Assembly (NCBI GenBank): GCA_021814695.1
Contig: JAKAHY010000005.1
Span: 1,364-65,363 of the forward strand
Source of the DNA: a bacterium
GTDB taxonomy: Bacteria > Patescibacteriota > Minisyncoccia > UBA6257 > JAGOQP01
Direction of reading: 5' to 3'
DNA: 64,000 bases
Shown: one piece after another, positions 6,589 to 53,813 of the stretch
Position numbering within the stretch: the first letter of the stretch is position 1
How the letters are laid out: each line of letters opens with the position of its first letter
Notes under the pieces: generated by a model
Seen by the model: only the letters and a program-made list of their open reading frames with translations
Databases searched by the model: none
What the model was told of the DNA's origin: nothing
Translations under genes and position numbers: made by a program

Positions 6589-8055
6589 ATGCGTCAAGTT
6601 TCATTTATTCATTCTTCAAAGTACAATAAACAAATTATGAGACTTCAAGATTCCCTATCGGGAAAGAAAATAGAGCTTAAAAAAACGTCCAAACCAATCA
6701 AATTGTTTGTCTGTGGACCGACGGTTTACGACAAAACCCACATAGGCCATGCCCGGACGTATGTGGCGTTTGATGCATTCGTTCAATACCTCCGATACAC
6801 CGGCCAAAAAGTCTTTTATCTGATAAACATAACCGACGTTGACGACAAAATAATCGCCAAAGCCCAACAGGAACAAAAAAATCCGTTTGAAATAGCCGAG
6901 TTTTTTGAAAATGATTTCCATCAGACCGAAAAGATTTTAAACATAGAATCGGTTACTAAATATGCCCGGGCATCGGATCATATAAAAGAAATAATCGCCC
7001 AAATCAAAGTCTTGATAAAGAGAGGATATGCGTATGAGACTCAACACGGAATATATTTTAAGGTTAAAAAATTCAAAAACTACGGCAAATTATCCAAACA
7101 AAATCTGAATGCTCTCCGCCCCGGATGGAGGATTGATATCGATCCGGAAAAGAAAGACCCTCTGGATTTTGCTCTTTGGAAAAAGTCGGCTTCCGAAATT
7201 AAAACATCGGACAAAAAACAGCCGGCAATTGTCGACTCGGAACCTTTTTGGAAAAGTCCGTGGGGATGGGGCAGGCCTGGGTGGCACATTGAAGACACGG
7301 CTATTACCGAAAAATATTTTGGCGTTCAATACGATATCCACGGAGGAGCGGCGGAACTTAAATTCCCCCACCATGAATCGGAGATTGCCCAGCAGGAATC
7401 AGCGTCAGGCAAAAAACCTTTGGTAAAAATCTGGATGCATACCGGAGTTCTTCTGGTTGGCGGACAAAAGATGTCCAAGAGTTTGAAAAATTTTATTACA
7501 GTGGATGACTTTGTTTCAAAGTATGGCTCCAACGCCTTACGACTTATGATTCTAAACCACTCTTATCACTCTCCTGTCGACTACACCGACGAGACGGCTC
7601 AAGCGGCTCACAATAATATAATCTCTCTTATGCAGTTTTTACTCAAAGCCGATTTTGTATCAAAACACCAGAAAGAAGGCTTCGGATCTTTGCCCCTAAA
7701 AGAGTTCGAAAAACAGATAACGGAATCACTTGACGACGATTTCAATACGCCAAAGGCCATGGGGCTGCTCTTTGAGCTTGTGAACAGAATCGAATCGTCT
7801 ATATACACATTGCCGGCAGGAGAAATCAAAAAGGCCGCCAGATTTGTACAGAAATATTTTGAGATTTTAGGGTTTGTCCTTCCGGTTCCGGAATCGGAAA
7901 TACCCGACAAAATCTTCAATTTAGCCTCCGAAAGGGAGGAATTCAGAGGTAATAAACAATTTATTAAGGCCGACGCCTTGAGAAATGAAATTAATGAGTT
8001 AGGATACAGTGTAGAAGATACGCCATTTGGACCGTTTGTCAGAAAAGATATTTAA
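6589..8055 (+). CDS. cysS: Cysteinyl-tRNA synthetase (true start possibly at 6637, MRLQD)
   Basis: HIGH motif (CGPTVYDKTHIGHAR), KMSKS motif (QKMSKSLKNF), and class I Rossmann-fold architecture. Confidence 0.9.
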   Translation: MRQVSFIHSSKYNKQIMRLQDSLSGKKIELKKTSKPIKLFVCGPTVYDKTHIGHARTYVAFDAFVQYLRYTGQKVFYLINITDVDDKIIAKAQQEQKNPFEIAEFFENDFHQTEKILNIESVTKYARASDHIKEIIAQIKVLIKRGYAYETQHGIYFKVKKFKNYGKLSKQNLNALRPGWRIDIDPEKKDPLDFALWKKSASEIKTSDKKQPAIVDSEPFWKSPWGWGRPGWHIEDTAITEKYFGVQYDIHGGAAELKFPHHESEIAQQESASGKKPLVKIWMHTGVLLVGGQKMSKSLKNFITVDDFVSKYGSNALRLMILNHSYHSPVDYTDETAQAAHNNIISLMQFLLKADFVSKHQKEGFGSLPLKEFEKQITESLDDDFNTPKAMGLLFELVNRIESSIYTLPAGEIKKAARFVQKYFEILGFVLPVPESEIPDKIFNLASEREEFRGNKQFIKADALRNEINELGYSVEDTPFGPFVRKDI

Positions 8056-13804: not shown

Positions 13805-14051
13805 TTTCCCCTCCTTTTTGGGTTGTTAAGGTTCAAAAACTGCTCCGGTCATCGGAGCAGTTTTTGGTTTCAAATGTCAAAAAGTATTGTTTATATATTT
13901 AAAATCAAAGATTGCTCCAATGAAAGCCGGCCTCCGTTAAGGGATGCCGGGCAAATCATATTAATTTGGAACAACCCGTGTTTATACATAATTTTATTGC
14001 TTGTATTGTACATAACGATAAACAAATCAATTTGTTTCATTTTTTGTGGCC

Positions 14052-14071
14052 CCTGCCTACCGGCAGGCAGG
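14052..14071. repeat. 20-nt GC-rich palindrome cctgcctaccggcaggcagg (copy 1)
   Basis: An identical 20-mer occurs at 28160-28179; both copies sit beside tRNA-derived fragments. Confidence 0.7.
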
Positions 14072-14088
14072 CAACACGGGGGTTCGCC

Positions 14089-14102
14089 GTTCGAATCCCG
14101 AG
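14089..14102 (+). repeat. Inverted partial copy of the tRNA-Glu T-arm
   Basis: gttcgaatcccgag on the plus strand matches the T-arm of the minus-strand tRNA-Glu, about 50 nt downstream of the tRNA 3' end. Confidence 0.55.
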
Positions 14103-14111
14103 GGCAAAAAC

Positions 14112-14140
14112 AAAACATCCCGCTTACGCGGGTATGTTTT
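14112..14140 (-). terminator. Terminator after tRNA-Glu
   Basis: Hairpin cccgcttacgcggg followed by a T-run on the minus strand. Confidence 0.5.
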
Positions 14141-14148
14141 TGTTTTTG

Positions 14149-22810: not shown

Positions 22811-25800
22811 TTATTTGTTCATCACGAACGGTTTTGCCTCAAGAACATCTTCGTCTTTCGTATTATCATTAGTGTCTTTGCGGAAGAAAATCCAGTAGAT
22901 AAGGAATAGTAAAGCGATAAACAGAATAAGATCAAATATCCAATTTCCGAGCAAAGCTCCAAACGCGGTGATAACCGTAGCTCCTAAGGCCGGACCACTG
23001 CCGACAATTGAAGTCAGGTAGGCTGAAATAGACTGGAATCTTCCCCGAACATCATTAAAGTTAAGAACCGAAGAAAAGATTACGGTATCTCCGTTAGAAA
23101 GAGAATCCGAAGCAATTCCATCAATGCTTATAGCTGATTGGAAATTAGCCGCGACCGCCCCAAGATTGTAGGAAATCCCATTAGCATCGTGATTGAAGAA
23201 AGGATAGTTGGTTGAAGAAAATTCAGTTCCCGGAGGCAAGATAACTTTCAGAAATGCGTTAGATAAGTTGTATGTGCATCCGTTACGATAAGTGATAGTC
23301 AAAACGAAATGCTGTCCCGGAGTTAACTGACTGACGTTTATCGAAGGAACAAGCATGAGACACGAGAGTCCGGTAGTGGTCGGCTGAACAATGATCGGAT
23401 TAGTGGGAGTAACCGGATTTACGATGATAGTTTGCTGTTTGGCAGTCGTAAAACTCAATATTGAACCGTAAGCTGTTCCGGAGCCGTTCTGAGCCACTGC
23501 GCGATAGTAATAAGTAGTATTCTGAGCAAGTCCCGAAACTGCGGTTGAGAGATTTGCATATGAACTTCCAGCCCCAACGGGTTGACTGACGGTTTGTGAT
23601 CCGAGACTCATAGTTGTCCCGTATTCAAACCAACCGTTGGCAGAATTGCCATTGGGATTTACCTGCCCGTTAAGCAATGCCGACGTTTGATAAATATACG
23701 ATGCCTGATTGGTTATGACCAAAGGCGTAACGTTGTAGTTATTATTTCCTCCGGTAGAAAAACTCAATATCTGGCCGTAAGTCGTTCCGGAATCGTTTCT
23801 GGCTGCTGCGCGATAATAATAGGTAGTCCCTTGAGACAATCCTGAAACAGATTGATTGAAGTACTGGGTTCCGCTGTATGAACCGATGCTCTGCGAAAAA
23901 GTAGTGTTACCAAGATAGTTATAGTTGGTTCCATACTCAAACCAGGCGTAAGTATTTCCACCATTGGGGTTTACCTGACCATAAAGTGTAGCTGAATTGT
24001 AGGAGACGTTAGAGCTGTTGGTCTGAACATAAGGAGTGCTTCCGTTATAGCAGTTATTTCCATAACATCCGCCTCCGTTGTTTGTAGAGAAACTAAGAAT
24101 TGATCCGTAAGCGGTTCCGGCGCTATTTTGGGCGACAACCCGGTAATAATAAGTCGTGTTGTAGTTGAGTCCGGATATATAAGTAGAGACATTGATTGAG
24201 CTGTTGTTGGAACCGGCCGACTGATAGGAAGTCATGTTCCCTAAGTTAGTCGAAGCTCCATACTCAAACCAGTAGTTGGTGGAACAATTGTTCGGATTTA
24301 CCTGTCCGTTAAGTTGAGCCGAATTCTGATAAACATTTCCGACACTCAAAGACGAGGCCATCGGAGACGAACACGATCCTCCACTGCCTCCATTGGTTGT
24401 AAAGCTTAAAATTGAACCCTGAGAAGTTCCGTAGGAATTCTGAGCAACAATCCTGTAGTAATAAGTGGTGTTAGAAGAAAGATTTGATAAGCTTGCCGAA
24501 TAAGGTTGAGCGCTATTTCCGGAACCGGCTGATTGAAATCCGGTGGAATTACCCAAAGACTGGGAAGTTCCGTATTCAAACCAATATGATGTTGAAGCGC
24601 TGTTAGGATTTACGGTACCGGTTATCTGAGCCGAAGATTGAGAAAGATTATTCGTTCCGCCGGTAACCACAATAGGAGTATTTCCTCCTCCGCCTCCGCC
24701 ATTAGCAGTTGTGAAACTAAGAACTGATCCCTGGGTAGTTCCGTAAGAATTCTGGGCGACTACTCTAAAATAATAAGTAGTGTTAGCCGACAATCCCGTT
24801 ACACCAGCCAAAACATTTTGATTTGAAGTTCCGTTTCCGGCCGATTGAGCCGAAGTCGTATTACCCAAAGACTGGGAGGTCCCGTATTCGAACCAATATG
24901 ATGTTGAAGCGCTGTTGGGATTTACCGAACCATTAAGAGTCGCCGAAGTCTGAGAAACGTCGGAGGCTGAATTGGTAATCGCCAAAGGAGCCGATCCTTG
25001 ATGTGTCTGGCTGATTTGAACAGTAACGCTATCGGTTGCCAAACCGCTTGAATTGCTGCAAGAAATAGAATAGGTGGTCAAACTATAAATAGCTCCGGTT
25101 AAAACCGATCCCGAAGTTGCCCCTCCGGTAGAAAAATTACCTCCGGTAGCATGACATTCGGTGGCATTGGTCGAACTCCAATTTAAAGTTGAGGAACCGC
25201 CACTGGTTACAGTTGTCGGGTTAGCAGAGATATTAGCCGTCGGATATTGTGCGGGCGGATTACTTACACTAACAGTAACGCTATCGGTTGCCGAACCGCT
25301 TGAATTGCTGCAAGAAATAGAATAGGTGGTTGAGCTATAAAGGACTCCGGTTGAAGCAGATCCGGATGTCGCTCCTCCGGTAGAAAAATTACCTCTGGTA
25401 GCATGACATTCGGTGGCATTATTTGAACTCCATTGAATCGTAGATGAATTTCCGGAACCTATAATTGTCGGGTAGGCGGAAATATTCGCCGTCGGTTGTG
25501 AAACCGGAGGCGGATTGTTTATCACGCTTACGGTTGCATTAGCCTGAATGGAACCACCCGAAGAATTTGTACATTGAATTGAAAAAGTTGTGGTGCCAGC
25601 CAACGGAGAAACCTGGTCTTGTCCCTGGGTCGCGTTACTGGTAGAAAAACCGGCTCCGGCCAAAGCATGACATTCGGTGGCGTTGGTTGATGTCCAGTGC
25701 AGATAAGGAGCTGTTCCTAACGAAACCTGAGTTACGGCAGTGCCGTTGGGATACTCTGCCCAAAGATTAGCCGTGGGTTGCTGTTGCTGAATCGATTGTC

Positions 25801-26287
25801 CGGTAATGCTATAAAGTCCGGTTGTATAATATTCGATATTCCCGCTGCCCGGTAAAACATCCCCTACCCCGCCAAAACTGGCGCTCATGGGAGAAAGAGA
25901 GATGGTGTATCCCGGAGCTGCATAAATATCTACAGATTGCGAAATTGATGGCGCGTTTTGAGCCCAAATTGTTCCGGTTACTCTGATGTGATTACCGTCA
26001 CCGGTAGCGCTATAACTGGATTTGGCATCAATAGCGGTAACCGAAGAATTGTTTAAAAAGGTGAATTCGAAAGCAACCTGATCTCCAGGCTTCATATTAG
26101 TAAGCGATGTCGTCCAGTTGTATGTTCCGGCATATGCGTGATTTCCAACCGTAAACATTCCGGATTGAGAAAATGACGCTTGACCGGCAGCCAATGCAAA
26201 AGAAGGCACGAGCGAAGCCGCTACGCCTATAACTACGACCAAAATTGATGATATTTTGAATAATTTATTCATTTTAGAATTAGGCAT
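22811..26287 (-). CDS. Giant cell-surface protein with fibronectin-III-like repeats
   Basis: 1158 aa. Signal peptide; three Cys-containing about 50-aa repeats (NATECHA...SISC.NSSG); six or more about 100-aa repeats (YWFEYGTSQSLGN...TTYYFRVVAQNSYGT...LSFTT); C-terminal TM helix with a short charged tail. Confidence 0.8.
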   Translation of the reverse strand: MPNSKMNKLFKISSILVVVIGVAASLVPSFALAAGQASFSQSGMFTVGNHAYAGTYNWTTSLTNMKPGDQVAFEFTFLNNSSVTAIDAKSSYSATGDGNHIRVTGTIWAQNAPSISQSVDIYAAPGYTISLSPMSASFGGVGDVLPGSGNIEYYTTGLYSITGQSIQQQQPTANLWAEYPNGTAVTQVSLGTAPYLHWTSTNATECHALAGAGFSTSNATQGQDQVSPLAGTTTFSIQCTNSSGGSIQANATVSVINNPPPVSQPTANISAYPTIIGSGNSSTIQWSSNNATECHATRGNFSTGGATSGSASTGVLYSSTTYSISCSNSSGSATDSVTVSVSNPPAQYPTANISANPTTVTSGGSSTLNWSSTNATECHATGGNFSTGGATSGSVLTGAIYSLTTYSISCSNSSGLATDSVTVQISQTHQGSAPLAITNSASDVSQTSATLNGSVNPNSASTSYWFEYGTSQSLGNTTSAQSAGNGTSNQNVLAGVTGLSANTTYYFRVVAQNSYGTTQGSVLSFTTANGGGGGGNTPIVVTGGTNNLSQSSAQITGTVNPNSASTSYWFEYGTSQSLGNSTGFQSAGSGNSAQPYSASLSNLSSNTTYYYRIVAQNSYGTSQGSILSFTTNGGSGGSCSSPMASSLSVGNVYQNSAQLNGQVNPNNCSTNYWFEYGASTNLGNMTSYQSAGSNNSSINVSTYISGLNYNTTYYYRVVAQNSAGTAYGSILSFSTNNGGGCYGNNCYNGSTPYVQTNSSNVSYNSATLYGQVNPNGGNTYAWFEYGTNYNYLGNTTFSQSIGSYSGTQYFNQSVSGLSQGTTYYYRAAARNDSGTTYGQILSFSTGGNNNYNVTPLVITNQASYIYQTSALLNGQVNPNGNSANGWFEYGTTMSLGSQTVSQPVGAGSSYANLSTAVSGLAQNTTYYYRAVAQNGSGTAYGSILSFTTAKQQTIIVNPVTPTNPIIVQPTTTGLSCLMLVPSINVSQLTPGQHFVLTITYRNGCTYNLSNAFLKVILPPGTEFSSTNYPFFNHDANGISYNLGAVAANFQSAISIDGIASDSLSNGDTVIFSSVLNFNDVRGRFQSISAYLTSIVGSGPALGATVITAFGALLGNWIFDLILFIALLFLIYWIFFRKDTNDNTKDEDVLEAKPFVMNK

Positions 26288-28150: not shown

Positions 28151-28230
28151 GGGGTCATACCTGCCTACCGGCAGGCAGGGTTCAAGAGCTCATTGGTAGA
28201 ATTGCTTCGTCTTCATTAACATTATTAATA
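28151..28230 (+). pseudogene. Degenerate duplicate of the tRNA-Trp 5' half, interrupted by the 20-nt palindrome
   Basis: ggggtcata[cctgcctaccggcaggcagg]gttcaa[gagctcat]tggtagaattgc parallels the start of the downstream tRNA-Trp (ggggtcatagttcaatggtagaattgc). Confidence 0.55.
28160..28179. repeat. 20-nt GC-rich palindrome cctgcctaccggcaggcagg (copy 2)
   Basis: Identical to 14052-14071. Confidence 0.7.
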
Positions 28231-28231
28231 T

Positions 28232-28305
28232 GGGGTCATAGTTCAATGGTAGAATTGCGGTCTCCAAAACCGCTGATCTAGGTTCGAATCCTAGTGACCC
28301 CGCCA
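28232..28305 (+). tRNA. tRNA-Trp (anticodon CCA), 3' CCA encoded
   Basis: GGGGTCATAGTTCAATGGTAGAATTGCGGTCTCCAAAACCGCTGATCTAGGTTCGAATCCTAGTGACCCCGCCA. Confidence 0.85.
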
Positions 28306-28480
28306 GTGTAAAAATAATACCCGCAGTCGTGTTATTTTTATACAAGTGAGTCCTTGGATTCGAATTGGAAAAGGGTCGGGAAAACAACGTTTTCCCGTGT
28401 TGGAAAACAGCGAAGCGTTAGAAACCGAGGGTGTCTAAGGAGAAGCGAAGCGACGACGTGAGATTCCTAGTGACCCCGCA
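28306..28480 (+). mobile_element. GC-rich tRNA-Trp trailer bounded by a direct repeat of the tRNA 3' end (integration scar or mini element)
   Basis: 28462-28480 (gattcctagtgaccccgca) repeats the tRNA-Trp 3' end (28287-28305). The segment holds an inverted T-loop-like ggattcgaa (28356-28364) and the hairpin gggaaaacaacgttttccc. Confidence 0.4.
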
Positions 28481-28483
28481 GAT

Positions 28484-28516
28484 AAAAATAGAGCTTAATT
28501 TTAAGCTCTTTTTAAT
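28484..28516. terminator. Bidirectional terminator hairpin
   Basis: agagcttaattttaagctct flanked by A/T runs, between the tRNA-Trp locus and the convergent 28512-28895 gene. Confidence 0.5.
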
Positions 28517-49745: not shown

Positions 49746-51776
49746 TTATATATCCAGATTCTTCACAGTTGCCGCACGGCTTTGAATGAAGTGTTTTCTG
49801 GGCTCAACTCTTTCCCCCATAAGAATGTCAAAAAGGCGGTCAGCTGCCTGGGCATCCTCTATTTTCACCTGTTTCATAATTCTTGTGGTCGGATCCATTG
49901 TCGTTTCCCACAATTGCTGGGGGTTCATTTCTCCAAGACCCTTATAGCGCTGTATTAAAACGCCTTTGACTTTTTCCTCCCCTCCTTCTTCGGTAGAAGT
50001 TTCAACGTTCTTCTCCTCTTTTTCTTCTTTGTCTTCTTTAGCTTTCTTTTTTGCAGCTTTTGCCGCCTGCATTGAAGCTGAAATTTTATCCTTCTCCTGG
50101 TCGGAAAAAGCATACGCGAACTCTTTTCCGGATTGCACCCTGAAAAGCGGCGGCTGGGCAATATACAAATATCCCCTTTCTATAATTTCTCTAAAATAAC
50201 GGTAAAAAAGAGTCAAAAGAAGAGTGCGAATGTGAGCGCCGTCAACATCGGCATCGGTCATAATTACTATCTTGTGATAGCGGATTTTTTCCACATTAAA
50301 ATCGTTGCCAATGGCAGTCCCAAGAGCAATCACGAGCGATTTGATCTCGTTATTAATAAGCATTTTATCCAATCGGGATTTTTCGACATTGAGAATTTTC
50401 CCTCTGAGCGGCAATATAGCCTGAAATCTCCGATCTCTGCCCTGTTTTCCCGAACCTCCGGCCGAGTCTCCCTCGACAATAAATAATTCAGATTCTGAAG
50501 GTTCTTTCGATGTACAGTCGGCAAGTTTACCGGGAAGCGCCAGTCCTTCCAACGGACCCTTGCGCAATACGGTTTCTTTGGCTGCTTTAGCCGCCTTTCT
50601 GGCCTTTGCGGCCAAAAGACACTTACCCACAATGACCCTGGCTTCAGACGAATACTTTTGTAAGAACTCTTTTAGAGCTTCGGCAACAACAGCCTCAACG
50701 GCGGTTCTGGCGGGAGGATTTCCTAGGCGGGCCTTGGTCTGTCCCTCAAACTGAGGCTCTCTGATTTTTACCGACACAATGGCTACTATGCCCTCTCTCA
50801 CGTCATCACCGGTAAGATTTTCTTCCTTATCCTTAATATAGCCGTTCTCACGGGAATAGTCGTTTAAAACACGGGTAAGCGCGCTGCGAAATCCGGTCAG
50901 GTGCATTCCCCCGTCGGGCGTATAAATATTGTTTGCAAAACTCAACTCCTGAGTCTCGGGATCATTGTCATAGACAAATGTGGCCTCTACCTGTATATCC
51001 TCGTATTCCTTGTTTACATAAAATGGAGTTTCCTGCGCCGTTTCACCAAACTCATTCAAATACGAAAGAAATGAAAGCAATCCTCCTTCAAAACAGAACG
51101 AGTAATATAAGGGAACTTCTTCCCGCTCGTCTATAATTTCAATTGTTATCCCTTTGACCAAGAAAGCCTGTTGCCTTAAATGGTCTATGATTTTCTTCCG
51201 GTCGAATTCTATCTTGGAGAATATTTCCTCATCCGGTTGAAATGTTATTTTTGTACCCGTTGTTTTGGAATTGCCTATTTTTTTGACTTTATACTGCGGG
51301 ATTCCTTTTTTATATTCCTGAATATACGAACCTCCGTCTTTGTTTACTTCCGCCTTCATCCATTTGGAAAGGGCGTTAACAACCGCCGCTCCGACACCGT
51401 GCAAACCTCCCGAAACTTTATATGAATCTCCTCCAAATTTTCCTCCGGCATGAAGCGTGCAGAGAGCCGTTTCAAGAGCGGATTTTTTTGTCTGAGGATG
51501 CACATCAACCGGAATTCCTCGGCCGTCATCCGTAACGGCTACTATATTGTTCTTCAGCAGTTCTACTTTTATATGTTTTGCAAAACCGGCCATCGCTTCG
51601 TCGATAGAGTTATCAACGATTTCCCACACCAAATGATGCAAGCCATCGACTCCGGTGGAGCCGATGTACATTCCTGGGCGCTTTCTGACAGGCTCAAGAC
51701 CCTCAAGAACATAAATGTCCTTAGCGCTATAAGAAGCTCCGTTATTTTGTTCCTTTTTTTCCTCTTTTTTTGCCAT
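49746..51776 (-). CDS. gyrB: DNA gyrase subunit B
   Basis: GHKL ATPase (LHHLVWEIVDNSIDEA), Toprim (EGDSAGGS) and C-terminal tail motifs. Confidence 0.95.
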   Translation of the reverse strand: MAKKEEKKEQNNGASYSAKDIYVLEGLEPVRKRPGMYIGSTGVDGLHHLVWEIVDNSIDEAMAGFAKHIKVELLKNNIVAVTDDGRGIPVDVHPQTKKSALETALCTLHAGGKFGGDSYKVSGGLHGVGAAVVNALSKWMKAEVNKDGGSYIQEYKKGIPQYKVKKIGNSKTTGTKITFQPDEEIFSKIEFDRKKIIDHLRQQAFLVKGITIEIIDEREEVPLYYSFCFEGGLLSFLSYLNEFGETAQETPFYVNKEYEDIQVEATFVYDNDPETQELSFANNIYTPDGGMHLTGFRSALTRVLNDYSRENGYIKDKEENLTGDDVREGIVAIVSVKIREPQFEGQTKARLGNPPARTAVEAVVAEALKEFLQKYSSEARVIVGKCLLAAKARKAAKAAKETVLRKGPLEGLALPGKLADCTSKEPSESELFIVEGDSAGGSGKQGRDRRFQAILPLRGKILNVEKSRLDKMLINNEIKSLVIALGTAIGNDFNVEKIRYHKIVIMTDADVDGAHIRTLLLTLFYRYFREIIERGYLYIAQPPLFRVQSGKEFAYAFSDQEKDKISASMQAAKAAKKKAKEDKEEKEEKNVETSTEEGGEEKVKGVLIQRYKGLGEMNPQQLWETTMDPTTRIMKQVKIEDAQAADRLFDILMGERVEPRKHFIQSRAATVKNLDI

Positions 51777-51905
51777 TAAAATCTATAAAAAGCCACTAAA
51801 AATGGGATCAATTTAACCCCTTTTGTTGATCTAAGATTAGCATATTTTGAGCTAAAAAACAAGCCGGAATTGTGTTAAAACAGGGTAAAAATAGACACGG
51901 AAATT

Positions 51906-51924
51906 TGGGTGGCCTACGGGATTT
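51906..51924 (+). repeat. 19-nt direct repeat of the tRNA-His 3' end (attR-like)
   Basis: gggtggcctacgggatttg is identical to 52050-52068 (T-loop through acceptor 3' end of the minus-strand tRNA-His), 122 nt away. Confidence 0.65.
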
Positions 51925-52049
51925 GCCTCTCGCTCTGCTGAGTCTCGAGACCTTCGCAGCCTCTTCGGCAGCTGCGGCCCGCGGTTCAAATTCTATGAAG
52001 ATTTCCCAGAAAATAATAAGTTCTCCGAAGGGAGAACTTATTATTTCTT
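51925..52049 (-). mobile_element. GC-rich tRNA-His trailer between the tRNA and its 3'-end repeat (scar or mini integrative element)
   Basis: Contains an inverted T-arm-like cgcggttcaaattc (51979-51992) and a strong hairpin taagttctccgaagggagaactta (52016-52039, followed by a T-run on the minus strand) that likely terminates the tRNA-His transcript. Confidence 0.4.
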
Positions 52050-52122
52050 GGGTGGCCTACGGGATTTGAACCCGTGATAACAGTGCCACAAACTGTTGTG
52101 TTACCACTACACTAAGGCCACC
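52050..52122 (-). tRNA. tRNA-His (anticodon GTG); G-1 not encoded
   Basis: rc GGTGGCCTTAGTGTAGTGGTAACACAACAGTTTGTGGCACTGTTATCACGGGTTCAAATCCCGTAGGCCACCC; anticodon stem ACAGT/ACTGT. Confidence 0.7.
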
Positions 52123-52368: not shown

Positions 52369-52743
52369 TTATAAATCAAGTTTTCTACCCTTATAATTTA
52401 AAGCTTCTTTAATAAATTTTTTTTCGTCCCTACTGCTATGCTCTATCAAATGACAGTTAGCGCATAATAAAATACATTTCTTAATTTCGTTTTTTATAGA
52501 ATTCCAACTTTTATTTCCAACATTTCCAAGATTAAATTCTTTATTTTTTGGGTTTGTGTGGTGAAATTGGAAAGCTGATTGATTACCAGACCAACCACAT
52601 TTTTTACATTTTCCTCCAAGATATTTTATTGCAGCTAATTTTGTTCTATATCTCCTAATTTTTGTATTACAAGAACCACATCTGCTTCTGCACTTATTTT
52701 GATAATCTTTAAAATTATTTTTACAAAGCTTACATATTCGCAT
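52369..52743 (-). CDS. HNH endonuclease with N-terminal zinc fingers (homing-endonuclease-like)
   Basis: FQFHHTNP...N...N...KKCILLCANCHLIEH is a canonical HNH motif; CKLC...CGSC...CKKC zinc clusters; the region is markedly AT-rich. Confidence 0.7.
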   Translation of the reverse strand: MRICKLCKNNFKDYQNKCRSRCGSCNTKIRRYRTKLAAIKYLGGKCKKCGWSGNQSAFQFHHTNPKNKEFNLGNVGNKSWNSIKNEIKKCILLCANCHLIEHSSRDEKKFIKEALNYKGRKLDL

Positions 52744-52833: not shown

Positions 52834-53200
52834 GCCGCGGTAGCTCAGTGGTAGAGCGCATCCCTAAACTCTTTGGGGCTTTTCCGAGTAATCGGGATTG
52901 AAAAATCGGGTGAAATCGGTGGAAATCTCTAAATAAATTTTATTTTTAGACAATACCGAGCCAATCCTTCGCTAAAGCTTCGGATTGCAAGCAAGCTGTA
53001 TCTAAATTTTGCATAGAATAGAAAGTTTGCCTGCCGTAGCCTTCAGCGTAGGCAGGTGTAGAGACTATCCTTTATGGAGTACTCCGGCGGTTCCGCCAGA
53101 GGAAGCGCCCGATCCCCGCCTTTTGGTGGGGAATGATATAGTCCAAAACTCTTAGTCATGGAAGAGGATGGCGTCGGGGGTTCAATTCCCTCCCGCGGCA
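52834..53200 (+). tRNA. tRNA-Phe (anticodon GAA) interrupted by a group I intron between positions 33 and 34
   Basis: 5' exon GCCGCGGTAGCTCAGTGGTAGAGCGCATCCCT (52834-52865). 3' exon GAAGAGGATGGCGTCGGGGGTTCAATTCCCTCCCGCGGCA (53161-53200). Spliced loop CTGAAGA; acceptor GCCGCGG/CCGCGGC. Confidence 0.7.
52866..53160 (+). ncRNA. Group I self-splicing intron (295 nt) in the tRNA-Phe anticodon loop
   Basis: 5' exon ends in U paired to the intron GGGG (P1 CCCU/GGGG with a U-G pair); the intron ends in G (omega-G, 53160). R-like element AGAGACTA (about 53059-53067) and S-like GATATAGTCC (53135-53144) can form P7. Candidate cctgcc/ggcagg helix at 53032-53058. Confidence 0.65.
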
Positions 53201-53206
53201 CAATAA

Positions 53207-53240
53207 AAAACATTCACATTTTAAGTGGATGTTTTTATTT
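53207..53240 (+). terminator. Terminator after tRNA-Phe
   Basis: Hairpin acattcacattttaagtggatgt followed by ttttattt. Confidence 0.5.
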
Positions 53241-53392
53241 GCTGCGGGGAGCGAGCAAACTGATTTGCTTGCGTTAGGGAATTGAACGCCGGAGCATGTT
53301 TCGGCCAGCAGGCAGAAACGCGAGGCGGCGGCTAGACCAATTCGAGCGACGGCGAGAATTGAGTCGGAGCCAATATTATCCCGCGGCACAAT
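53241..53392 (+). mobile_element. GC-rich tRNA-Phe trailer ending in a direct repeat of the tRNA 3' end (scar or mini element)
   Basis: 53379-53392 (tcccgcggcacaat) repeats 53191-53204; inverted T-arm copy gggaattgaacgcc at 53277-53290; composition far more GC-rich than the flanks. Confidence 0.4.
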
Positions 53393-53405
53393 GAACAAAA
53401 AAGCC

Positions 53406-53813
53406 CTAAAAGGCTTTTTTGTTCATCATGACCGATTCCACTAAATCCCCCACGAAAGGTAATTTATACCTTTCGCCTTTATACGCCTTAAACATAGTAA
53501 TCACCCACACCGCAAATCCAAGCAGTGAAAGCAGGCCACCGACAAACCAACCAAAAAATGGAATTATTCCTACGATAAAAGACAGGACATTGAGCGACAA
53601 AAACACGAAGATTGACTGAAGTGCGTGGAACCGAATAAAATCGTTTTTATTTTCTATAACCAGAAAAACAATCCCTCCAACCCAAGCAAACAGATAACAC
53701 AAGACCGCCTCTATATTTTCCGGCAATCCCAATGCCGTCTTCTTGTGATCGGCCTGGGATTCCTTAATTTTATCCCCGTGAACGTGGTTACTCTCTTTTT
53801 TTGTTTCGTCCAT
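53406..53813 (-). CDS. Membrane protein (hypothetical, 3-4 TM)
   Basis: 135 aa; charged N-terminus followed by hydrophobic helices. Confidence 0.45.
   Translation of the reverse strand: MDETKKESNHVHGDKIKESQADHKKTALGLPENIEAVLCYLFAWVGGIVFLVIENKNDFIRFHALQSIFVFLSLNVLSFIVGIIPFFGWFVGGLLSLLGFAVWVITMFKAYKGERYKLPFVGDLVESVMMNKKAF

Follow-up and report, generated by a model that had tools for sequence, protein, structure and literature searches.

A miniature structured insertion behind tRNA-His in a patescibacterial genome and its relatives at other gene 3' ends

The tRNA-His locus

The window, by which the whole analysed stretch of 64,000 nucleotides from contig JAKAHY010000005.1 of an ultra-small, CPR/Paceibacteria-type bacterium is meant, carries an intact tRNA-His(GTG) gene on the minus strand at 52050-52121, which was identified by ARAGORN and by the Rfam tRNA model (67.2 bits). 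Its G-1 lies at 52122 and a promoter-like TTGAAA-17-TATAGT at 52168-52140. The 3' end of this gene is present twice. The 19-mer GGGTGGCCTACGGGATTTG, which corresponds to the last 19 nt of the tRNA, has exactly two occurrences, at 52050-52068 and at 51907-51925, and gave no match in 100 dinucleotide-preserving shuffles with three mismatches permitted. Such a repeat had been proposed from sequence alone in the original prediction and is confirmed, except that its first copy had been placed one base off, at 51906-51924. The full exact repeat is 21 nt long, with a spacing of 143 nt. The right-hand copy, DR1 (52048-52068, minus strand, 100% identity), is the 3' end of the tRNA plus 2 nt and comprises the 3' half of the T-loop, the 3' strands of the T-stem and acceptor, C73, C74 and AA. 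The left-hand copy, DR2 (51905-51925, minus strand), is a displaced direct copy of the same end. After DR2 the host flank leads to gyrB, the start codon of which lies at 51776, and below 51905 this flank can be aligned with the spacer between tRNA-His and gyrB in a related locus, L087. The neighbours of the segment are gyrB and tRNA genes.

No ORF of at least 50 aa is confined to the 122 nt between the two repeats, and the only ORF listed there (51872-52069, plus strand) extends through the repeats into the tRNA. The segment had been described as GC-rich, which held in part, its GC content being 49% against 41.6% for the window. It divides into a hairpin at 52011-52046 with 29% GC and a stretch at 51926-52009 with 58-66% GC, a content reached by 1% of 84-nt windows. 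The hairpin, termed hairpin X, is borne by the element on the minus strand and is predicted by folding to form a stem of 16-17 bp with a CUUC loop, followed by UUUUCU. The strong hairpin terminator that had been proposed corresponds to this terminator-like stem-loop. Hairpin X is not found in the empty sites of L087, L088 and L099 described below, where the sequence after the tRNA differs, and the tRNA-His element of L106 has a different hairpin in its place. It forms the midpoint of a long palindrome made by DR1 and an inverted copy of the same tRNA end.

This inverted copy, IRL (51983-52011, minus strand; TTCTGGG...GAATTTGAACC), is a decayed version of the duplicated tRNA 3' segment, for which the inverted-copy test alone gave p=0.044. 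Best preserved within it is its core ATTTGAACC (51983-51991), which reads as the T-loop with its flanks in reverse complement (tRNA positions ~52-60). An inverted T-arm motif had been noted at this place; it held, and can now be assigned to an inverted copy of the entire duplicated target segment. The IRL of the L106 orthologue is clearer, and when judged by eye it agrees at ~17/23 positions with the reverse-complemented tRNA 3' end.

The remaining part is a GC-rich structured core (51926-51982, minus strand), defined by folding and by comparison with L106. Here CGCGGG pairs with CCCGU of DR2 and surrounds two hairpins, at 51955-51976 and 51926-51952. The folding z-scores were -3.4 and -5.5, and none of 200 shuffles was equally stable. 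The core is ~93% identical to that of L106, in which two substitutions produce better pairs (U:G to U:A and A:C to G:C). The covariance model for this subtype, R3, matches the window and L106 only, and therefore no independent covariation test of the core is possible. The predicted structure of the His subtype rests mainly on thermodynamics, with only these two orthologues. A replacement allele of tRNA-His, mismatching the ends of the element, now stands upstream of it in L106, where the element is still present.

Empty sites, sister elements and the wider family

In L087, L088 and L099, tRNA-His directly abuts the gyrB upstream region without the extra 143 bp, and the segment in the window is therefore an insertion. 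L107 and L123 also lack it. The empty sites were obtained by a DNA-pattern scan of metagenomes; an analysis of gyrB synteny in 80 reference genomes found no tRNA-His adjoining gyrB in the closest GTDB representatives. Pairs of empty and occupied sites in close relatives were also found for sister elements, namely L094 versus L082, L088 versus L099 and, at tRNA-Phe, L106 versus the window. A host terminator directly follows tRNA-Phe in L106, and in the window it follows the second copy of the tRNA end. The region at 51905-52047 is concluded to be one copy of a family of miniature, ORF-less structured insertions; the favoured reading, about as likely as not, is that they are mobile.

Three sister copies lie in the same window. 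A subtype B element is located behind tRNA-Trp at 28306-28479 (plus strand), supported by the repeat search, by a score of 116 bits with model R2 and by an inverted copy at p=0.004. It consists of a hairpin (28310-28339), an inverted copy (28346-28365), a core (28366-28462) and a displaced copy (28463-28479), and a host terminator comes after it at 28490-28509. Behind tRNA-Phe, a subtype A element occupies 53203-53392 (plus strand), with a score of 142.5 bits for model R1 in addition to the repeat search and the empty site in L106. Its left part contains a terminator (53205-53236), an inverted acceptor copy (53237-53249) and a hairpin H1 (53251-53272), and its right part an inverted T-arm copy (53274-53287), the core and a displaced copy (53379-53392), after which the host terminator is found at 53393-53424. 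This tRNA-Phe was missed by ARAGORN because it is split by a group I intron, which scored 48.3 bits in an Rfam scan of the same kind as used on the elements. The tRNA cluster of the window thus also houses a true group I intron, together with homing-endonuclease genes. A degenerate or deleted copy was recognized behind tRNA-Glu at 14046-14147 (minus strand), and retains a terminator (14106-14147), an inverted T-arm copy (14089-14105; TCGGGATTCGAAC, 13/13), a 20-nt GC hairpin (14052-14071) and the displaced end GGGGCCAC (14046-14053).

Several expectations of the original prediction can be judged at this point. The same layout had been claimed at tRNA-Trp and tRNA-Phe and was confirmed at both, since 28286-28303 recurs at 28462-28479 (17/18) and 53191-53210 at 53379-53398 (18/20). 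The empty site that it anticipated was found at tRNA-His and for the sister pairs. The suggestion of a recurring class of tiny tRNA-targeting insertions is supported by the presence of the layout at many tRNAs in related genomes. The alternative that they are remnants is disfavoured, as a uniform size and an interior that is structured throughout speak for the small unit being the complete element, and a search for a larger, integrase-bearing element found none. A recognizable cloverleaf in the second copy, which would have spoken for gene duplication, was not seen, as ARAGORN made no call in 51905-52011 and the Rfam tRNA model gave no match there even at E<=10.

The family comprises ORF-less elements of 105-175 nt and was seen only in Paceibacteria-like loci; 783 kb of unrelated loci from bacteria and archaea contained no comparable layout. 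Besides tRNA-His, Trp, Phe and Glu in the window, the targets elsewhere are tRNA-Arg, Pro, Ala and Phe and, once, rplK. The family is therefore not strictly tRNA-specific, one copy being located at the rplK 3' end. More than 15 copies at 8 targets share this size range and a common order of parts, in which the gene 3' end is followed by a hairpin, an inverted 3'-end copy, a structured core, a displaced direct copy and the host flank. The hairpin is a terminator in AT-rich genomes, and in GC-richer relatives the interval between tRNA and element has no terminator. One copy sits between tRNA-Pro and tRNA-Phe in an apparent tRNA operon. The elements are always sense-oriented downstream of an expressed gene, and no promoter-like site belonging to an element was found. 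No cargo was seen in any copy.

The conserved fold is best documented for subtype A, the largest subtype, in the core of which 94.8% of cells are paired and 30/34 pairs are changed on both sides; none of 500 shuffles matched this, and slid controls reached 29-47%. In subtype B, the junctions are conserved and the stems covary. The loops GAGCGACGGNGAG and ACGACGUGAG are conserved in the elements. Of the 11 elements tested, 10 have an inverted target copy directly behind hairpin X/H1, and individual p values across all 11 are 0.001-0.13; the exception is L119-Phe, where the best match falls inside the core. The inverted copy always extends across the left boundary of the duplicated segment, overshooting it by 2-4 nt at tRNA targets and by 7 nt at rplK. 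The first bases of the unit are the same as the first bases following it, and both are able to pair with the inverted copy. Pairing between the inverted and the direct copy on the gene-sense strand closes the core. A folding-strand test gave a ratio of G:U to A:C of 29:8 on this strand, subject to an ascertainment caveat. The outer ends (an A-rich terminator start and ...ACGACGTGAG or ...GAGAGG) are not mutual inverted repeats. The duplications are gene-end specific and measure 17-26 nt, up to ~50 nt.

Individual loci add further features. L091 contains three identical tandem units of 167 nt and, at tRNA-Arg, a second and almost whole copy of the tRNA whose D- and T-loops hold inserted hairpins. 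Across ~75 nt, the Ala element of L091 is almost identical to that of L116, and by GyrB both loci are only distant relatives of the window organism (L116 82%). The Arg and Phe paralogues of L099 have the same core and the same secondary hairpin insertion but target-specific ends. Degenerate copies include the one at tRNA-Glu in the window and another in L107. The two copies at rplK in L002, each of ~26 nt, show 4 differences, all of them synonymous, and both encode RSMGITVE*, which indicates carry-over of a foreign gene end; this argument comes from one locus only.

Searches for associated machinery were negative within their scope. No integrase, transposase, Rep, RT or Cas1 was detected in the 39 window ORFs scanned or seen beside any element copy, and neither a larger parent nor a free circular form was found in the loci searched. 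Scans of viral contigs with the tRNA end, the His core and the subtype-A loop motif returned nothing, or chance matches in GC-rich coding DNA. With Rfam 15, only tRNAs reached the gathering threshold in the window and nothing credible appeared in the element regions. Permissive Rfam scans of all three window elements yielded no intron or ribozyme match above chance, even at E<=10. No description of such elements was met in the literature searched, and the family appears, on that basis, to be previously undescribed, with no matching Rfam family, integrase or published account.

Several identities were considered and set aside. Known RNA genes (SRP RNA, 6S, tmRNA, RNase P, T-box and ribozymes) were ruled out by Rfam scans, both at the gathering threshold and with permissive settings. 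ARAGORN and Rfam excluded a further tRNA on either strand as well as a split or permuted one; the opposite strand shows acceptor-like and T-loop-like pieces because it is the complement of both target copies. A hammerhead-like reading of the CUGANGAG/GAAAC motifs was dropped, as the members are inconsistent. A tRNA-like minihelix with a free discriminator was ruled out, the inverted copy pairing through N73 and C74 to give a blunt stem. An origin by fold-back priming at the terminator would render the core random filler, which contradicts its conservation.

Mechanism and rival explanations

It is shown that each element occupies the 3' end of a conserved gene, that the inserted DNA brings with it a hairpin or terminator, an inverted 3'-end copy and a conserved folded core, and that the insert separates the gene from a direct copy of its 3' end, which borders the original downstream flank. 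The likeliest mechanism, which could as easily prove wrong as right and for which neither enzyme nor intermediate has been identified, is a non-autonomous, att-like recombination inside conserved gene ends. The unit would integrate like an attP-bearing element, recombining within the carried gene end of 17-26 nt (Campbell-type), so that the gene would stay intact and a direct repeat would arise. The 3'-end copy borne by the element would complete the gene and the resident end would be pushed downstream, an inference for which a direct indication exists only at rplK. Recombination would have to be supplied in trans, because the unit encodes nothing, and the supplier might be an unidentified recombinase or host recombination following DNA uptake. 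Since the inverted and direct copies pair on the gene-sense strand, a single-stranded unit would fold into a rod with a stem imitating the double-stranded target, in the manner of integron attC and CTX-phage attP. It may be speculated that the folded stem and the conserved core act as a recognition site. A single-stranded or RNA intermediate must be assumed, because a double-stranded circle of 143 bp is physically implausible. Against this att model, retargeting to another tRNA needs the inverted and direct copies to change together, which a simple att site leaves unexplained. Against mobile DNA in general, the strong covariation and conserved loops are equally compatible with a functional RNA, and the searches found no integrase, larger parent or circular form.

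The strongest rival, which remains possible, holds that the host retains the unit as a functional structured RNA, the DNA repeats being part of the RNA gene and not traces of insertion. The unit would be transcribed as a tRNA 3' trailer or rplK 3' UTR and freed by tRNA-processing enzymes, and its ends, one complementary and one identical to the cognate gene end, would close the fold or contact the cognate tRNA. In its favour are the invariable sense orientation behind an expressed gene, the lack of a promoter-like site of its own, and the absence of a terminator before the element in GC-richer relatives together with the copy between tRNA-Pro and tRNA-Phe. The very strong covariation with conserved loop and junction sequences, the excess of G:U over A:C on the sense strand, and the near-identity of the L091 and L116 Ala elements despite their distance from the window organism also support it. 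Against it, the element is dispensable, being missing at the same tRNA in close relatives, and most tRNAs are without one. In the AT-rich window, moreover, a strong terminator-like hairpin separates tRNA and core. The persistence of the L106 element behind a mismatching tRNA-His allele, the resemblance of the identical L091 triplication to DNA amplification, and the existence of degenerate copies likewise count against it.

A bolder reading, considered unlikely, treats the elements as self-inserting units of 100-170 nt, made of RNA or folded single-stranded DNA, with the inverted copy as a programmable guide. By pairing with bases across the insertion point, this guide would select conserved gene 3' ends, and the gene would be regenerated on insertion. 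The guide would resemble a group I internal guide sequence or a group II EBS, and the core would be a small catalytic or protein-recruiting module; a reverse-splicing-like attack or target-primed copying would be followed by fixation in DNA. This is supported by the inverted copy always spanning the left boundary of the duplicated segment and tracking the target, the protein gene included, and by paralogues retargeting with matching changes at both ends. In addition, the same sequence opens the unit and follows it, and both may pair with the guide (cf. P1/P10 alternation), and a true group I intron and homing-endonuclease genes occur in the window tRNA cluster. Conversely, no known ribozyme or intron model matched even at E<=10, the core of 57-100 nt is far smaller than known self-splicing introns, and no reverse transcriptase was seen in the window ORFs scanned or among the neighbours of the copies. 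The geometry argument is merely suggestive, and the rplK copies, with their synonymous differences, are better explained by carry-over of a foreign allele than by target templating.

A third explanation, very unlikely, is that the segment is the deletion scar of a large prophage, ICE or IME at a tRNA-His attB, similar to a CIME with attL and attR retained. A repeat that starts in the T-loop and extends to the tRNA 3' end, with the intact gene at one of the junctions, is the classical integrase signature, and decayed elements are documented to leave partial tRNAs (10.1101/2020.12.28.424599). Independent scars would vary, however, whereas more than 15 copies at 8 targets share one size range, with homologous, fully base-paired interiors that carry compensatory changes. 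Gene fragments are absent, identical tandem units exist, and neither the loci nor the viral contigs yielded an intact parent. A tandem tRNA-His duplication with a decayed second copy, perhaps invaded by small hairpins, could appeal to the genuine second tRNA-Arg copy of L091 and to the T-stem-like CGCGGG...CCCGU helix around the His core, but is all but excluded by the lack of a cloverleaf, D-arm or anticodon arm (ARAGORN and the Rfam tRNA model were negative), by tRNA likeness in direct orientation being limited to the last 19-21 nt, by a 21/21 identity beside complete dissimilarity elsewhere, which is not neutral decay, and by an interior plan homologous to that of elements behind unrelated tRNAs and rplK.

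Significance and comparison with known systems

The genomes of CPR/Patescibacteria are tiny and are thought to be poor in classical mobile elements. In this case, a 64-kb stretch of housekeeping genes holds four copies of a gene-less structured insertion, and relatives hold many more. If the elements are mobile DNA, they would represent an extreme miniaturisation of the strategy of integrating at a tRNA end and rebuilding it, and would imply that these organisms possess a recombination activity, as yet unidentified, that acts in trans. If they are RNA, they would form a new, well-supported class of structured RNAs tied to tRNA operons. Should the guide reading hold, they would be the smallest known mobile elements autonomous in recognition, a retargetable insertion system for CPR bacteria without an element-encoded protein and directly relevant to programmable insertion. 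Under either the DNA or the RNA reading, they account for spurious partial tRNAs in CPR annotations, the allele-like repeat differences are precise markers of recent gene flow between lineages, and the three covariance models (R1-R3) are applicable to all CPR genomes.

As in prophages, ICEs, IMEs, tycheposons and CIMEs, an intact tRNA is found at one junction and a displaced partial tRNA, from T-loop to 3' end, at the other. A CIME is a decayed ICE or IME that retains attL and attR (PMC5704250), and partial tRNAs left by decayed elements have been reported in a preprint on tycheposons (10.1101/2020.12.28.424599). With integrative elements at tRNA ends, the family also shares the provision of the sequence downstream of the tRNA, empty sites in relatives, tandem accretion, and a carried gene end that may show allele-like differences from that of the host. 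In contrast to them, its members measure only 105-175 nt, lack an integrase, ORF or known autonomous parent, contain an inverted copy of the att segment and also occur at a protein-gene 3' end. Their interior, unlike that of CIMEs, is a conserved covarying fold and not decayed genes. Of the criteria for tRNA-targeting integrase elements, the repeat with an intact tRNA and the empty site are fulfilled, and the integrase, usually with cargo, is lacking. The decayed interior expected of CIMEs is not seen, the same plan with a covarying fold and no gene fragments recurring in more than 15 copies.

Casposons and Cas1-type integration at tRNA-gene 3' ends produce long target duplications (14-15 bp or repeat-length), which resemble those of the family. 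Unlike casposons, the elements have no casposon-type terminal inverted repeats, cas1 or polB, and a simple staggered-cut duplication is disfavoured by the allele-like differences between the rplK repeats. MITE-like repeats (REP/BIME, Correia, RUP and Rickettsia palindromic elements) are similarly small, non-coding, hairpin-forming and multi-copy, polymorphic among strains and sometimes located within RNA genes. The family differs from them in lacking transposase-type terminal inverted repeats, in its long, target-specific flanking duplication (against 2-10 bp) and in its strictly fixed position and orientation relative to the gene end. A MITE or non-autonomous DDE transposon was rejected on the same grounds of missing terminal inverted repeats and long, gene-end-specific duplications. 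Like group I and II introns, the elements reside in highly conserved genes, have a segment complementary across the insertion point, form a structured RNA on the sense strand and share a tRNA cluster with a genuine group I intron and with genes for homing endonucleases. Unlike introns, they do not interrupt the gene, are several-fold too small and have no detectable ribozyme core; splicing is unnecessary because the upstream gene copy is complete.

Integron attC sites and cassettes and the CTX-phage attP(+) hairpin differ from the family in several respects. The R/L boxes of attC (GTTRRRY) are missing and the junctions are instead tRNA T-loops (GTTCRAW). The boundary repeat is 17-26 nt against 7 in attC, and the target is a gene end needing regeneration. 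No link to IntI or Xer has been shown and no IntI was present in the window ORFs scanned, and the single-stranded intermediate is, for the family, purely inferred. The elements nevertheless fit the description of such sites, namely a one-strand imperfect palindrome with structure conserved over sequence. As in attC and CTX attP, this palindrome is of ~60-150 nt, one strand is favoured in folding, the folded stem imitates a double-stranded target, and the units can be stacked in arrays beside a fixed site.

The element behind tRNA-His

The tRNA-His(GTG) gene occupies 52050-52121 on the minus strand of the window (ARAGORN; Rfam tRNA, 67.2 bits) and overlaps the right-hand copy of a direct repeat. 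The 19-nt repeat claimed here in the original prediction held. Exactly two copies lie in the window (51907-51925 and 52050-52068), and shuffled sequence has none with up to three mismatches permitted. Once extended, the exact repeat measures 21 nt (51905-51925 and 52048-52068, 143 nt apart); it is real and not a product of chance.

On the tRNA strand, the gene is followed by a hairpin of 16-17 bp (52046-52011) and then UUUUCU. At the end of the stretch after the hairpin stands GAATTTGAACC; its core, ATTTGAACC at 51991-51983, matches the tRNA-His T-loop in reverse complement. Next come a structured core of 57 nt (66% GC), comprising two hairpins with the closing pair CGCGGG:CCCGU, and the second, displaced copy of the tRNA end (DR2, 51925-51905). 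A spacer of about 130 nt separates DR2 from the start codon of gyrB at 51776 (49746-51776, minus strand; 676-aa GyrB). The enclosed segment had been described as GC-rich, which held only for a portion of it: the inter-repeat region has 49% GC overall, with 29% in the hairpin and 58-66% in the other part, a value reached by only 1% of equal-length windows. The folded unit is far stabler than shuffles (z = -3.4 and -5.5). It contains neither an ORF nor a known RNA family. The elements have no Rfam family match, and those of the window contain no promoter-like site.

The proteins closest to the window GyrB carry the names Candidatus Paceibacterota or Wolfebacteria. ORF domain scans and synteny identify the window as core genome, including dnaK, grpE, dnaB, recR, an mraZ/mraW/PBP/Mur cluster, rpsB, tsf, trmD, smc, rnc, nusB, dnaE, thrS, gatB, nusG, rplK and gyrB. 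Integrase, transposase, reverse transcriptase and Cas1 domains were not found among the 39 window ORFs scanned. The window also encodes a 1158-aa protein with fibronectin-III/PhoD-N-like repeats (22811-26287, minus strand), which are specified by tandem units of about 312 nt sharing 64-86% identity (repeat families D1-D6).

Empty and occupied sites

Related tRNA-His loci were retrieved by a metagenome scan with the tRNA-His 3' end. An empty site had been proposed as a check and was found in the metagenomic loci L087, L088 and L099, where tRNA-His leads straight into the gyrB upstream region and gyrB. Their tRNA-His genes are identical or near-identical to that of the window, which has 143 bases more. 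The element is likewise missing from L107 (GyrB 88% identical) and L123, and is carried by L106 (GyrB 95%) with a core about 93% identical to the window. It is thus an insertion, judged against relatives; it predates the separation of the window and L106 and postdates their split from the 88% relatives. Upstream of the L106 element, another tRNA-His allele (acceptor GAGATCT/AGATCTC, T-loop TGCAAAT), located 12 nt downstream of a LAGLIDADG ORF, has taken the place of the tRNA-His and the hairpin. Within the element, both the inverted and the direct copy still agree with the window-type tRNA-His, indicating that they descend from the tRNA resident when the element arrived.

The replacement in L106 left a window-type displaced 3' end downstream. 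LAGLIDADG ORFs lie about 6-20 nt upstream of tRNA-His in L106 (2198-2730), L114 (2354-2934), L116 (8482-9052) and L123 (129-668), and the acceptor stems of these tRNAs are unlike that of the window. Allele replacement linked to homing endonucleases is a possible explanation.

At tRNA-Phe, even close relatives differ: L094 is empty and L082 occupied, with flanks otherwise near-identical; presence and absence also separate L088 (empty) from L099 (occupied), and L106 (empty) from the window (occupied). In L106 the host terminator AACAAAAAAGCCCTA.AGGGCTTTTTTGTT comes immediately after tRNA-Phe, and in the window it comes after DR2. The tRNA-adjacent hairpin or terminator therefore arrives with the element, which supplies its own, and the original flank remains with DR2. 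In L099, the elements behind tRNA-Arg and tRNA-Phe have cores about 85-90% identical, and both contain an inserted secondary GC hairpin of 15 nt at an identical position; their inverted and direct copies are each specific to their own tRNA. The spreading agent can therefore alter both ends together.

The tRNA-Phe(GAA) of the window (52834-53202, plus strand; exons 52834-52865 and 53161-53202) has its anticodon loop split by a group I intron of about 295 nt, also present in L106 and L107. Since the intron interrupts the gene and scores just under the Rfam gathering score of 50 (Intron_gpI, 48.3 bits, E 2e-11), neither ARAGORN nor the Rfam scan at gathering calls a tRNA-Phe in the window. Between tRNA-Arg and this gene sits a 124-aa ORF (52369-52743, minus strand) whose HNH endonuclease domain scores 22.4 bits (cut-off 21.4); it might be a free-standing homing endonuclease of the tRNA cluster.

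A recurrent family with a conserved fold

The same layout had been predicted at tRNA-Trp and tRNA-Phe of the window, and both claims held: a 17/18 copy of the 3' end lies 159 nt downstream of the former and an 18/20 copy 174 nt downstream of the latter. A degenerate version lies downstream of tRNA-Glu. Among 54 tRNAs in 106 sequences, ten downstream copies of a tRNA's own 3' 17 nt were detected, all 126-317 nt away and all in Paceibacteria-like loci, and no upstream copies; additional downstream copies were found in further loci. The related sequences compared were a few dozen metagenomic loci. Covariance models built from seven elements (subtype A, behind tRNA-Phe in the window) and four elements (subtype B, behind tRNA-Trp) recover their training members and, beyond these, a copy in L119 (66 bits), one in L002, a Liptonbacteria MAG (37.7 bits, E about 1e-6), and remnants in L107 and L116. 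Run on unrelated loci of bacteria and archaea (783 kb), model A gave zero matches and model B a single weak one (E 0.5). The family is recurrent and lineage-restricted. Its third subtype, the His element, is shorter and is carried only by the window and L106.

All members share one order: the gene 3' end with its repeat copy (DR1), a hairpin or spacer, the duplicated stretch as an inverted copy (IRL), the structured core, and DR2 adjoining the original host flank. In AT-rich genomes the hairpin part is a canonical terminator, and in the His and Phe elements of the window DR1, hairpin and IRL form one long palindrome with the hairpin loop at its centre. The IRL is best kept over the T-loop and neighbouring stem; in several members it extends over the acceptor strand and even to bases beyond the tRNA. 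The sequence ATTTGCTGCGGG of the window's Phe element reads, apart from a single change and a single gap, as CCCGCGGCACAAT in reverse complement. Individual p values for the IRL range from 0.001 to 0.13 across 11 elements, ten of which have it at the equivalent relative place; the best match of L119-Phe is inside the core instead.

Support for a core structure is strong in subtype A: 94.8% of cells are paired and 30 of 34 pairs have changed on both sides, values attained by none of 500 shuffles; slid controls were 29-47% paired. In subtype B the junctions GGGUCGG, AAACCGAGG and ACGACGUGAG are invariant, the stems covary, and a predicted closing helix links the inverted and direct copies. G:U pairs outnumber A:C pairs on the gene-sense strand (17:5 and 12:3), so this strand gives the better fold. 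A single-strand fold in gene-sense orientation is conserved across the family, with the caveat that structure prediction used that strand and the strand inference carries ascertainment bias.

The copy in L002 sits at the end of rplK, whose L11 is 74% identical to that of the window. The gene end (...AGA AGC ATG GGA ATT ACC GTA GAG TAA) and the displaced copy (CGG AGT ATG GGA ATT ACC GTG GAG TAA) show four differences, all four synonymous, and each encodes RSMGITVE*. The odds of this pattern in an untranslated copy are roughly 0.25^4 (a rough estimate). Because random change would hardly produce it, one copy probably derives from a diverged functional rplK, as far as a single locus can tell. 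Such an origin fits carry-over on an incoming element and is not predicted by simple target-site duplication. The left edge of the rplK repeat and the inverted copy TCCAATGCTTC are complementary, and the inverted-copy rule is thus also valid at a non-tRNA target.

Several related repeats were observed. Behind tRNA-Ala in L091 (8869-9335), the models detect three perfectly identical tandem 167-nt subtype B units, indicating recent amplification or repeated insertion. Behind tRNA-Arg(tct) of the same locus (7438-7600) lies a pseudo-tRNA that is almost complete, its D- and T-loops carrying inserted GC hairpins; genuine tandem pseudo-tRNAs thus exist alongside the structured elements. The tRNA-Trp gene is preceded, 26 nt upstream, by a partial 5' copy of itself (positions about 1-27; window 28151-28205, plus strand) in which a GC hairpin of 20 nt breaks the sequence after position 9; the real gene therefore stands between old pieces of its 5' and 3' ends. 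A palindromic hairpin, the 20-mer CCTGCCTACCGGCAGGCAGG, is present in exact form at 14052-14071 and 28160-28179 (0.03 expected), with an imperfect copy at about 53030-53057. Similar CCTGCC...GGCAGG hairpins of 15-36 nt occur within elements and pseudo-tRNA loops of L099, L091 and L106, and look like a distinct family of tiny hairpin repeats. At tRNA 5' ends, a mirror-image class (upstream of tRNA-Arg(tct) in L094/L082; L106 1815-1935; L119 8520-8680; L122) comprises a copy of the tRNA's first 11-18 nt, a conserved insert of about 95-105 nt and the intact tRNA. The L119 copy is 63 nt and includes the promoter region.

Proposed mechanism, rival readings and known systems

The unit may integrate by att-like, Campbell-type recombination inside the short gene end that it brings. 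The recombination would be catalysed in trans, and recognition would rest on the IRL/DR stem together with the conserved core, perhaps with a single-stranded intermediate, for which attC and CTX attP are the analogy. This joint package is inferred, without expression or read-level data, and is the preferred reading at slightly less than even odds; a plain att model does not account for the joint change of both ends.

The best-surviving rival, a structured RNA retained by the host, remains possible. A guide-directed mobile element acting at the RNA level is unlikely, and if the inverted copy is a guide, there is a modest chance that the family is categorically new. The scar of a large integrative element is still less credible, and a decayed tandem tRNA is very unlikely.

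As no description of such elements appeared in the literature searched, the att-like reading is of a miniature, structured, integrase-less att-flanked insertion that has not been previously described. In behaviour, its closest likeness is an integrative element at a tRNA attB. Tycheposons flanked by partial tRNAs (10.1101/2020.12.28.424599) are comparable, and CIMEs (PMC5704250) are a comparison case; unlike these, the family has neither an encoded integrase nor a decayed gene-bearing interior. With introns it shares a segment complementary to the insertion point, whereas the ribozyme core is absent. The sequence boxes of attC and CTX attP are missing and a recombinase link has not been shown, yet the elements resemble both in being strand-biased, imperfect palindromes whose structure is conserved.
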